In this document: piece by piece, positions 8,517 to 11,900 of the stretch
How positions within the stretch are numbered: position 1 is the stretch's first letter
Layout of the letters: every line of letters begins with the position of its first letter
From: Verrucomicrobiia bacterium
GTDB taxonomy: Bacteria; Verrucomicrobiota; Verrucomicrobiia; Limisphaerales; Palsa-1400
Direction of reading: 5' to 3'
NCBI GenBank assembly: GCA_036501625.1
Contig: DASXZY010000009.1
Location: 28,117 to 92,116, forward strand
DNA: 64,000 nt
Notes under the pieces: model-generated
What the model saw: only the letters and a program-made list of their open reading frames with translations
Databases searched by the model: none
What the model was told of the DNA's origin: nothing
Translations under genes and position numbers: made by a program

Positions 8517-8792
8517 TTGGCGTTGGATTTTCTAATCCACGCCGAAAGCGGGTTAAAACGAGCCGGGGGGCGACCTGCTCCGAGCTGCCTGACAAGAAAT
8601 GGCGGAGGAACGAATGTCATCGTCGGGTTAGGAACCCCAGGGAACTCATACGCCCTTGATTTGGCGACGAACCTTACGCCTCCGGTTAGTTGGACGCCCC
8701 AAGCTGCCAACACGTTGACGGGAAGGATTCTGAATTTCACGAACGTCACTAGCTCTCCACAAGGTTTTTACCGAACACGATTTGTGCAATAA
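8517..8792 (+). pseudogene. Orphan fragment that encodes only the conserved C-terminal module shared by the giant proteins (gene remnant or cassette)
   Basis: ...GNSYALDLATNLTPPVSWTPQAANTLTGRILNFTNVTSSPQGFYRTRFVQ* aligns with the C-termini of the 8990, 42987, 55937 and 60073 genes (GxxYxLQxSxxL..W....FYRxxxxQ). TTG start, a stop immediately upstream, no N-terminal body. Confidence 0.45.
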
Positions 8793-8989
8793 AGCCATAT
8801 ATGCCGCGCAGTTTCAAAACCCGGTTTTGATTCGGTTGACTAACACCAGCGCTCTGAGGTAATTGGGATGCCGCCAACAATTACCAGAGAGCCGGCTCTC
8901 AAGGCCATTTGTCGCAGCATTACCCCTCCAACGACACTTCGGACGGGTCGCTATTGGGTCGCTTTCTCAATCCTTTTCATTCCATATCT

Positions 8990-11900
8990 TCAAGGCGTTT
9001 CCAGCAGGCGATAAAACCGGGCGGGGCTATGTTGCGTGTTCGTATCCGACAGGACGAAGGGCGACGAAGCGGGCGTGTTGGTGACGATCGAAGTCCACTG
9101 CGCCAAATTGGCGCTGACTTGGAGCACGTAATTGGAGCCAGCCGGGCCGGCGAATGTCATTTGGAAGGCGCCATTGCTGAACACCCCCGGAGTCAGGAAA
9201 AAGACGCCGGGCAGGATCGTGTAACTCTGCGTTCCCACGACGCTGTTGATGTAGCCGGGCGCGAAGGCGTTGGCGCTGACAGTCGCGCTGTTGGTCACCA
9301 GGAACGGGCCAGTGTAGAGCGCGGAACTGGGCGTCGGCAGGGAGCCATCCAGCGTGTAGTAGAGGGTGGCGTTGGTGGCGGGCGGTGTGATGGTGACGCT
9401 GACAAAGCCTTGATAGATGCCCCCAGCGGGCGAGACCGCCGGCGGCGGAAGGGCGGGCGGGCCGCCGAGGCTGTTGATCCATTGGGCCATCAACTGCACG
9501 GCGTTGGTGTCAATCAAATTGCGAGCCAGGGGCGGCATTTGGATGTTCGGGCTGACGATGTTCATCCGGTCGTAGAGGCTTGAGCGCCAGACATCGCCGG
9601 GCGTCACAATATCCACATTGTCGTAACCCAAATTGCCTTTGACCGCCGGGACGCCAATGATGTTCTGGCTGGCCAGCGGCGTGTCGTAACGGGCGTCGAA
9701 GGTCGGGCCGGTTCCGCCGGGTTGATGGCACTGCGCGCAATTGGCATCCAGATAGGAACGCGCGCGCTGAACCAAACTTGCGGAGGCATTGGTCACCGCG
9801 GAAAGCTGCTCAAAGCCAGCCAATTGAGATTCGTCGAAAGCCGGATAGAACAGCCCCGCGCGGTTCATGGCGCGCAACTCATTGTCGGTTACGCCGTTGG
9901 AATAAACCTGGGTGTTGTTCAACTGCCGCGTATTGAGGCCCAGCACATAATTGGCCGCCGGCGTATGGCATTGCAAACAATCGCTGGGGCTGGGGTAATA
10001 CCATGCCTGCGTAATGACGCCGCCGGGAGTTTGCACGGGGATCGCCTCGGTCAGGTTGCTGGAAAGCAGATCAGCGTCGCTGTTGTCCGCCCGCCATTTG
10101 TAGGTGACGCCATAGACCGCGCCATTGGTGTCGCGCACCAACAGGCGGGTTTCCAGTCGATGGAGAGAGGCCGGATCGCTTTGGTTGGTGAGCAATTCAA
10201 AAGTTTTGACAAAAATCGTCCCGGCCGGGAACGACCACGTGCCGGTGGGGGAGAACGCGATTTGCCCGGCCGGCGAATAGGGCGCGCCGGTATTGGGGAT
10301 GGACATGTAACGCACCTTCTGCGCGCCATCGGACCAGAGAGGCGTGTTGGGAACGTAAGGAATCAGCGTCGCGGCCGGGGCCATGGCGGGTGTGCTGGCA
10401 AAGACGCCTGTCCCCGACAATAAAAGAGGCAGCGGCCCGGTGAAAACCGGCGGCATGTTGTAAAAGGCCGGGGCCGGCGGATAATTCGTCAGCCCGTAAG
10501 CCGCTCCGCTGCCGGCATTGATCGTGATATTGACAGGCGCGGAGGTGGCGGACAGGCCCGTGGTATCCGAGGCGACCGCTGTCAAGACGTATTGGCCGGC
10601 TGCCAGGCCCGTTGTTGTCAAGACGTAGGGCAGATTGGTGATGGCGCCCACCGGGCTGCCGTTGATGTAAAAAGCCACCTGAGCGACGGCGTTGGACTGC
10701 GCCGCGGCCGTTGCAGCGAGCGTCATGGTGGCGTCGGCGGCCAAGGATGTGTTGGTGGGCGAGGTTATCACCACGACGGGCGGCGGATTGGAGACGGGAT
10801 AAAGCTGGGCTTGCGGCACGATGGCGAACGGTGTGGAAGGGCTGCTCCAGGACAACTGCGCGACGGCGTCGCCATTGGTGTGATAATAGTAATCCATCTG
10901 GATGTTGTAAATCTGTTGCGCGAGCATCGGGATGCTGGCGCTGGCCAGAGTGGGCGACTGGTTGCTCCAGCTATTGATGAGAAGCTGGCCGTTAATCCAC
11001 AGGCGGGCGCCGGTGTCGCTGAGCGTGGAGAAGGTGTAGGTTTCGTTATATTGCGGCTGCACGCATCCGGTCCATCTGACGCTGAAATTGCTCGAACCGA
11101 TGCTCGGATCCGGCGACGTGCCGGTCCAGTTGAAGTTGATGTCCGCATCGATCCGCGCGAGCGTGGCTGGCGGAACGAACGTGCCGATTTGATTGGAGAA
11201 ATACGAGCCAGCCAGTCCGAGTCCGCCGCCAGAGGCCGCGCTGTTGATGAAACCGGCGCTGGTCACGGCGCTGACGGAGCCGCCCAGACTGGCAATCACC
11301 TGCACGGTGGCAGCATTGGTCAGCGTAAACGGACTGGCGTACCGCGCGGAAAACACCGTCGGCGTTGTGCCGTCGGTTGTGTAGTAAAAGGCCGTGCCCG
11401 CGTCGGCGTCCGAAAAACTAACCGTCACTTGATTGGTGAAAATCCCGCCATTCGGGTTAATGGAAGGCGGGGGCAGGAATGCTCCCAAACCGTAAACCGT
11501 CAGTGTATATTGCCCGGCGACGTAGACCTTGCCGTTGACAATCGTTGGCGCGATAAACTTCACGGCGCCGCCGGCGGAATCCCGCACCGGGATTTGATCG
11601 CTGGAGTAGATTTTCTGCGTCAAATTGGCCGCTTTGTAGGCGCGCAAAACGCCGGAGGAAGCGGGCGTTTCGCCTCCGGCGTTGTAAATCGCCCAGGCGA
11701 TGGCATTGCTGGTTCCGTTGGCGGAAATGCAGACGGTCGCGCCGCCCTTGTTGTCATACCCATCGGGCGTTTCCACGGGTGCCGTGTTAAACAGCGCGTT
11801 GGTGATCGAATAGGCGGCCAGCCTGGAATTGTAGTCAATAATATACAGCCTGTTATTGTAAAAGGCGGGCGTGATGTCACGGTCTCCGCTGGGGCCTCCA

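Follow-up and report, generated by a model that had tools for sequence, protein, structure and literature searches.

SLH domains and cell-wall-binding repeats are non-covalent surface anchors: they are terminal, vary in copy number and are carried by unrelated passenger proteins. The C-terminal domains (CTDs) of Bacteroidota's type IX secretion system (T9SS), which are of type A (TIGR04183/PF18962) or type B (TIGR04131), are small Ig-like beta-sandwiches found at the extreme C-terminus of unrelated, Sec-exported and often very large surface proteins. Fibronectin type III (FN3, PF00041) domains occur in tandem arrays and have a core signature made up of a Trp both in strand B and around C-C', the motif Y.v..S in strand C and a YR(V) tyrosine corner in strand F. 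Here we describe a C-terminal protein module that, like those anchors, is terminal, varies in copy number and is attached to unrelated passengers, and that shares the features listed above with the T9SS CTDs on the one hand and with FN3 domains on the other. It is present in five copies in a 64,000-nucleotide stretch (the window) of a Verrucomicrobiia bacterium assembly (GCA_036501625.1, contig DASXZY010000009.1, positions 28,117 to 92,116). Four copies end giant proteins of 2117, 2986, 1379 and 1169 aa, and the fifth lies in an orphan open reading frame (ORF).

The C-termini that an earlier note on this DNA had quoted for the four genes and the orphan match the sequence exactly when they are read from the window. 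For a non-circular test, we built a hidden Markov model (HMM) from 249 database instances of the module, none of them from the window, and scanned the window in all six frames. There were exactly five matches, with E values of 3.1e-23, 1.5e-22, 5.6e-21, 2.7e-13 (the orphan) and 8.1e-11 (the 2986-aa protein, in which the match stops 3 aa short of the stop codon), and no sixth match below E=1. The likeness among the five copies far exceeds chance. The earlier note had described five copies of a module of ~50 aa; the five copies are real, but the conserved unit is a whole domain of ~70-76 aa. Its description of the four giants as secreted and otherwise unrelated agrees with our results. All four begin with a Sec-type signal peptide, one and the same module ends them all, and their other domains differ, save between the two NHL proteins. 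The 2117-aa protein contains PA14, Big_7, CHB_HEX_C and an SO2930-type diheme cytochrome, the 2986-aa protein contains I-set Ig and CarboxypepD_reg domains, and the 1379- and 1169-aa proteins contain NHL propellers and fn3 domains. Orthologues of the 1379-aa protein (P0090 and P0094) have the same ending.

The fold of the module appears to be related to FN3. AlphaFold2 models were built from two different paralogues, the C-termini of the 2117-aa protein (mean pLDDT 77, ~86-94 inside the module) and of the 1169-aa protein (pLDDT 88, pTM 0.77). Both models are small six-strand beta-sandwiches in which the 'FYR' strand comes last and the chain then stops. Strand A maps to VFFL/VFS, B to AFQMTFA, C to NYVLQVS, C' to TSIVTN, E to FVLSD and F to FYRLLET. 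The models are similar in structure to solved FN3 domains, and a Foldseek search of the PDB returned weak Ig/FN3 matches only. At the level of profiles, hhalign aligned the module with a canonical bacterial FN3 array (P0069) at a probability of 85.6% (E 5.6e-6) over 54 columns that span strands B-F; this array had itself been retrieved by the module profile. In the alignment, 'f.LtW' pairs with FN3 strand B, 'Y.iQ.StnL..W' with strands C and C', and 'RFYRv' with the tyrosine corner of strand F. The consensus that had been read as a motif specific to a signal (G..Y.LQ.S..L..W ... FYR) is instead essentially the FN3 hydrophobic core, made up of strand C, the Trp-bearing turn between C and C' and the tyrosine corner.

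FN3 domains have seven strands (A-B-E and C'-C-F-G); in DSSP assignments of both models, the chain of the module ends at strand F. We propose that the module has no G strand and that it ends 4-6 residues past the 'FYR' of strand F, because the chain ends there in the models, copies repeat every ~77 aa and proline-rich linkers begin right after 'FYRxxxx'. No curated model describes the module. There was no Pfam-A, NCBIfam 20.0 or PADLOC match in the last ~85 aa of the whole window proteins, isolated modules matched no Pfam or NCBIfam model even at E values up to 10, and homologues with tandem arrays gave only scattered sub-threshold fragments. PF00041 itself did not match the module in the window proteins, in isolated modules (E up to 10) or in the tandem-array proteins; fn3 matches in these proteins lie elsewhere. 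Additionally, we found no account of the module in the literature. The earlier note had set a known or Ig-like domain against its own idea of an undescribed sorting signal: the fold is indeed Ig-like and of FN3 type, yet no named model matches it. We are confident that the five copies represent a single ~70-76-residue FN3-like beta-sandwich with strands A, B, C, C', E and F.

The module is widespread. A HMMER search of 1.84 billion cluster representatives with the module profile recovered 13,917 proteins at E<=1e-3, of which 482 reached E<=1e-10. Among the best 148 of the 13,917, 145 carry at least one copy at a domain E<1e-3; 28 of these are single-copy proteins and 117 have 2-7 copies. Strict C-terminality, which the earlier note had named as a check, holds for the last copy of a protein and not for every copy. 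The last copy stops no more than 5 residues short of the C-terminus in 132 of the 145 proteins and in 27 of the 28 single-copy proteins, and short database matches show the same C-terminal placement, but 255 (66%) of the 387 module instances in the 145 proteins are internal and 132 are terminal.

Within tandem arrays, the repeat period is ~77 aa and adjoining copies are near-identical. Internal copies are followed by Pro-rich linkers. Terminal copies continue for 4-6 residues after 'FYR' and their last residue is Pro (105 of 179) or Gln (37); this position corresponds to the first residue of the linker. The polypeptide simply stops at the domain boundary. When a profile made from single-copy terminal modules was used for scoring, the terminal copies of arrays exceeded internal copies of the same arrays by a median of +2.2 bits (61 of 105 proteins, p = 0.009), and a search by profile scoring for a terminal-specific subtype found no distinct one. 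A pattern scan of GTDB genomes recovered 57 loci, and nearly all belong to Verrucomicrobiota that bear the labels Limisphaerales, Pedosphaera, subdivision 3 or Verrucomicrobiia; one named match is from a Hydrogenedentota metagenome-assembled genome (MAG). In 58 of the 59 reading frames at these loci, a stop codon follows 0-2 aa past the module, and most of the frames extend >1000 aa upstream. Many complete homologues start with Sec-type signal peptides, as judged by a heuristic only.

The module is thus a repeatable extracellular block, present singly or in 2-7 tandem copies with proline-rich linkers, that ends Sec-exported proteins. We propose a model in which it would serve as a terminal attachment or stalk unit of surface proteins. 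These proteins may be held non-covalently to a component of the envelope, or to each other, through the exposed edge of strand F or through a face of the sheet. The number of copies would then set avidity or length, and the module would not act as a short sorting tag that is cleaved off. By analogy with multi-copy anchoring repeats at the ends of surface proteins, we favour a structural or attachment module over a short tag because copy number is variable, linkers are Pro-rich, the copies are equivalent and only core residues are conserved. The attachment or stalk function is suggested here tentatively. The account as a whole, an FN3-like C-terminal attachment or stalk domain together with a decayed orphan copy, seems to us, on balance, to be correct.

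Several points weigh against this account. The attachment or stalk function is only what we infer. The near-absolute rule that the protein ends at the module is odd for a generic FN3 spacer, and it is what would be expected of a terminal signal. The absence of a G strand was deduced from DSSP strings, the length of the domain, the ~77-aa period of the repeats and the alignments, not from coordinates. In addition, the position statistics describe the best 150 of the 13,917 matches and were obtained with a profile whose seeds were terminal copies; many of the metagenome proteins are fragments. The GTDB scan was seeded with the subfamily of the 2117-aa protein alone, and its loci are biased towards that subfamily.

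The alternative that survives best is that the module is a sorting or secretion signal, a C-terminal beta-sandwich that an undescribed machinery of Verrucomicrobiota would recognise for outer-membrane translocation or surface attachment, much as T9SS CTDs are recognised, and whose open F-strand edge could dock by beta-augmentation. This was the proposal of the earlier note, and part of what it noticed stands: the cargo proteins are unrelated and carry Sec signal peptides, and the module is at the extreme C-terminus in ~91% of proteins and in nearly all of the genome frames. The module also agrees with T9SS CTDs (PMC4804311, PMC11285876) in size class and in its Ig-like class of fold. Pfam and NCBIfam recognised no other anchor in these proteins, and the slight advantage of terminal over internal copies in profile scores points the same way. 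Against a signal, however, tandem arrays are usual among the best matches, with internal copies that are near-identical in type, and the conserved positions are those of the FN3 core. There is no motif specific to terminal copies, whose final Pro or Gln belongs to the linker. A sorting signal is thus no longer the simplest reading, and we consider it unlikely.

The comparison with described sorting systems leads in the same direction. The module had been said to be unlike PEP-CTERM, LPXTG, T9SS CTDs and autotransporters, and no such model in Pfam or NCBIfam matches it; in particular, TIGR04183, PF18962 and TIGR04131 did not match at E values up to 10. The PEP-CTERM/LPXTG-type combination of motif, hydrophobic helix and basic tail is absent, and the last 25 residues are instead a polar beta-strand that ends in ...FYR(x)4-5. 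No candidate machinery was identified within the window, where the neighbours are a two-partner secretion pair and an ExbBD-TonB cluster. A scan limited to genes of the window found no T9SS component. A more specific form of the same idea is that the G-strand-less module is the cargo domain of a new Verrucomicrobiota translocation or tethering system, in which the F-strand edge docks to a receptor and tandem copies double as a stalk; we think this quite unlikely. The finding as it stands is not evidence for a new sorting system. If the module were a secretion or anchoring signal, it would mark a new sorting route in the Planctomycetes-Verrucomicrobia-Chlamydiae (PVC) group; if not, it would be a routine FN3 variant.

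It is improbable that the module is a carbohydrate-binding module (CBM) that, like CBM32/discoidin or the Fn3-like modules of glycoside hydrolases, binds a substrate polysaccharide rather than the cell's own envelope. The PDB sequences that match it best come from a Paenibacillus glucanase/chitosanase, in its discoidin (CBM32) domains (~60 residues, E 4e-5), tandem-array proteins gave weak F5_F8_type_C, AlcCBM31 and CBM_5_12 matches, and the host proteins contain PA14, CHB_HEX_C and NHL domains. Nevertheless, every Pfam CBM match was under its cut-off, and substrate-binding CBMs do not follow so strict a C-terminal rule. With discoidin itself (F5/8 type C; e.g. PDB 2rv9, 4zxe), the module has a local motif in common, 'L.W....Y.iqvS.d...W..v'. 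Discoidin is a larger jelly-roll: the matched PDB chains have 136-137 aa, whereas the module has half that length and its models are of FN3 type. No full-length jelly-roll match reached the Pfam cut-off, and we rejected a discoidin identity on size and fold.

To a similar degree, we doubt that the module is a passive spacer, an FN3-like filler whose C-terminal bias arose from gene growth by 3' duplication and shuffling. Such a filler would fit the tandem arrays with Pro-rich linkers, the near-identical adjoining copies and the conservation limited to core residues. However, there is nothing to space at the very end of a protein, and the module comes last in all but one of the single-copy proteins, across many unrelated architectures.

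The orphan copy is most probably what is left of the 3' end of a fifth gene with the module, now in decay. Two longer proteins, P0041 and P0042, have ends that are 60-63% identical to it; the homology begins at ~8586, and the orphan matches profile positions 28-91 only. It has neither an ATG start nor a signal peptide, and the Joint Genome Institute (JGI) called no gene at this site on an independent contig that contains it. The G+C content of its third codon positions (GC3) is 0.54, compared with 0.70-0.84 in the other four modules and 0.72-0.75 in their genes. No promoter or terminator turned up in a scan of the orphan's surroundings, and a tblastn search with its nearest relatives found no upstream remains of the lost gene in 5000..9000. 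In related genomes, there was no orphan-type copy downstream of orthologues of the 2117-aa gene. Some short module ORFs elsewhere are pieces of frameshift-split genes (L062, L042).

The stop codons of the orphan and of the 2117-aa gene are convergent and 197 bp apart, an arrangement in which the earlier note saw cassette-like recombination between tags. We found no support for such recombination because the orphan appears to be a truncated remnant, its codon usage is relaxed and it lacks usable DNA similarity to the other copies. Among the five copies, those of the two NHL genes give the best nucleotide match, 69% over 70 nt; with the module of the 2117-aa gene, the orphan shares no match of more than 10 nt, and with each of the remaining three the limit is 9 nt. 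No inverted repeat joins it to the convergent gene end, and it is 36% identical in amino acids to that module, which belongs to a different subfamily. The orphan cassettes of polymorphic toxins lie downstream of the main gene in the same orientation, share a homologous junction with it and are followed by immunity genes. The window orphan differs from them: it is convergent, has no DNA similarity to the other copies and has no immunity-like ORF after it. That the orphan is a silent cassette that swaps tags with the 2117-aa gene is hardly credible; the two are close and convergent, and in a Limisphaerales MAG another isolated module ORF converges with a homologue of the 2117-aa gene (49% identity) at a distance of 2.4 kb, but the missing nucleotide similarity and inverted repeat, the different subfamily, the low GC3 and the truncation all speak against it, and the orphans of the two genomes are of unrelated subtypes.

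The ORF in the Limisphaerales MAG (L061, 4794..5168, GCA_054638695.1) is an isolated module-only frame that is annotated as a 56-aa hypothetical protein. DUF433 and PIN genes lie between it and the homologue of the 2117-aa gene, and its GC3 is normal, at 0.74. We treat its resemblance to the window orphan as a consequence of how common module genes are.

Directly before the orphan lies a hairpin-forming repeat with a folding energy of -73.9 kcal/mol (z -6.4). Its 115-nt core (8351..8465) is 93% identical to 6111..6225, and these two copies flank an eCIS_core/DUF4157 gene (6742..8301). Two contigs of JGI metagenome 3300036780, from which the window derives, cover the region and end inside the repeat, at 8376 and 8459, and overlap by 84 bp (8376..8459); the repeat element also broke the metagenome assembly. 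Rfam gave no match in 5900..9000. The 115-nt repeat may be an element like a miniature inverted-repeat transposable element (MITE) or a repetitive extragenic palindrome (REP).

Table 1. Module copies, the genes that carry them and adjacent elements in the window (positions are those of the window; a dot marks an element without strand).
Feature	Position	Strand	Remarks
Hairpin-forming repeat, 35-nt inverted arms	8317..8470	.	orphan directly after
Orphan ORF	8517..8792	+	stop-to-stop frame 8463..8789
Orphan module ('YALDLATNL...FYRTRYVP' subfamily), probable 3' gene remnant	8586..8789	+	stop codon 8790..8792
2117-aa gene	8990..15343	-	same call by JGI; ends in module
FN3-like C-terminal module of the 2117-aa PA14 / diheme-cytochrome / CHB_HEX_C protein	8993..9220	-	stop codon 8990..8992
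2986-aa gene	42987..51947	-	ends in module
FN3-like C-terminal module of the 2986-aa Ig / CarboxypepD_reg giant	42990..43217	-	most divergent copy
1379-aa gene	55937..60076	+	NHL protein, ends in module
Asp-rich, putative TSP3-type calcium-binding-like repeat DADGDGALNWQEYLAGTNP	59777..59833	+	conserved in alignment; homologues carry PF18884
FN3-like C-terminal module of the 1379-aa NHL protein	59846..60073	+	E 5.6e-21; stop codon 60074..60076
1169-aa gene	60073..63582	+	NHL protein, ends in module
Asp-rich, putative TSP3-type repeat DPDGDGASNWQEFIAGTDP	63292..63348	+	PF18884 TSP3_bac near cut-off
FN3-like C-terminal module of the 1169-aa NHL protein	63352..63579	+	stop codon 63580..63582

The calcium-binding-like motif that had been reported before the module in the two NHL giants is present, and its sequence suggests a bacterial thrombospondin type 3 (TSP3) repeat. 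Like PF18884, it follows the pattern Dx(D/P)DGDG..N.QE(Y/F)..GT(D/N)P. In the 1169-aa protein, PF18884, which has a cut-off of 25, scored 23.8 bits (E 4.1e-5), and it was not reported for the 1379-aa protein; homologues clearly carry it (69.6 bits in P0096). The segment of the 1169-aa protein was modelled with pLDDT >90, and the PDB profile search returned weak EF-hand and lanmodulin matches. The Asp-rich motif is an element separate from the module and upstream of it, and it is found in the two NHL proteins only.

The host genes show further features. Residues 1678-1997 of the 2117-aa protein match TIGR03806, the SO2930-family diheme c-type cytochrome (E 1.3e-62, below the cut-off). This domain sits between Big_7 and CHB_HEX_C, an odd mix for a surface protein. 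The 2986-aa protein has four near-identical ~200-aa repeats at its N-terminus and an unbroken run of ~19 glycines in its middle (...CTSCGGGG...GGSPGG...). The genes of the two NHL giants overlap at 60073..60076 by ATGA, with the stop codon of the first lying over the start codon of the second, which suggests translational coupling within a single operon. In the E-F loop of the module (e.g. TDTNAS in the copy of the 1169-aa protein) there is a bacterial N-glycosylation sequon, D/E-x-N-x-S/T. This sequon occurs in 22 of 245 module instances, compared with 3.0 +/- 1.8 in shuffles; as the instances are related, we regard it as a lead only.

Five genome loci with the module (L005, L008, L014, L021 and L058; 36-69% identity by tblastn) come from MAGs labelled Baltobacteraceae or Bifidobacteriaceae. 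Two of them, L005 and L008, are from a Baltobacteraceae-labelled MAG and are 64-68% identical to the module of the 2117-aa protein. These labels are probably binning or labelling errors.

Elsewhere in the window, 33167..39563 (-) and 39564..40475 (-) encode a two-partner secretion (TPS) pair, in which a TpsA-like protein of 1494 aa contains a TPS domain and the partner is a ShlB/POTRA_2 transporter of 634 aa; an AraC-type regulator adjoins the pair. The TpsA-like protein does not carry the module. An ExbB - ExbD - TonB-like - ExbD cluster (40492..42910, -) lies on the same strand as the gene for the 2986-aa giant and directly downstream of it, after a 77-bp gap. ExbB was matched by Pfam MotA_ExbB, and ExbD and TonB were named from sequence alone; it is possible that the cluster is co-transcribed with the giant. 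The gene at 3295..4662 (+) is dnaA (DnaA_N, Bac_DnaA and Bac_DnaA_C; a JGI gene call on L001), and the window probably lies close to the origin of chromosome replication.

Soils and fresh waters are rich in Verrucomicrobiota of the Limisphaerales/Pedosphaerales group, whose genomes encode giant surface proteins in large numbers. The module is found in ~14,000 clusters at 50% identity without a Pfam or NCBIfam model, and a curated model would help to annotate thousands of 'hypothetical' giants. It also offers a defined handle for tests of surface display.

In sum, the module can be compared with three known systems. To SLH domains and cell-wall-binding repeats it has no homology; the analogy is one of proposed function, drawn for a module known from its sequence and predicted models. 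Second, it differs from the T9SS CTDs in having six strands rather than 3+4, in being often tandem (117 of the 145 proteins have 2-7 copies) and in its Verrucomicrobiota host. Third, it departs from FN3 domains in its length of ~70-76 aa, its six strands, the failure of PF00041 to match and its strong preference for the extreme C-terminus, and the genome loci recovered for it come nearly all from one bacterial lineage. What is new is a large, unmodelled, C-terminally biased family of FN3-like domains that appear to lack the G strand.

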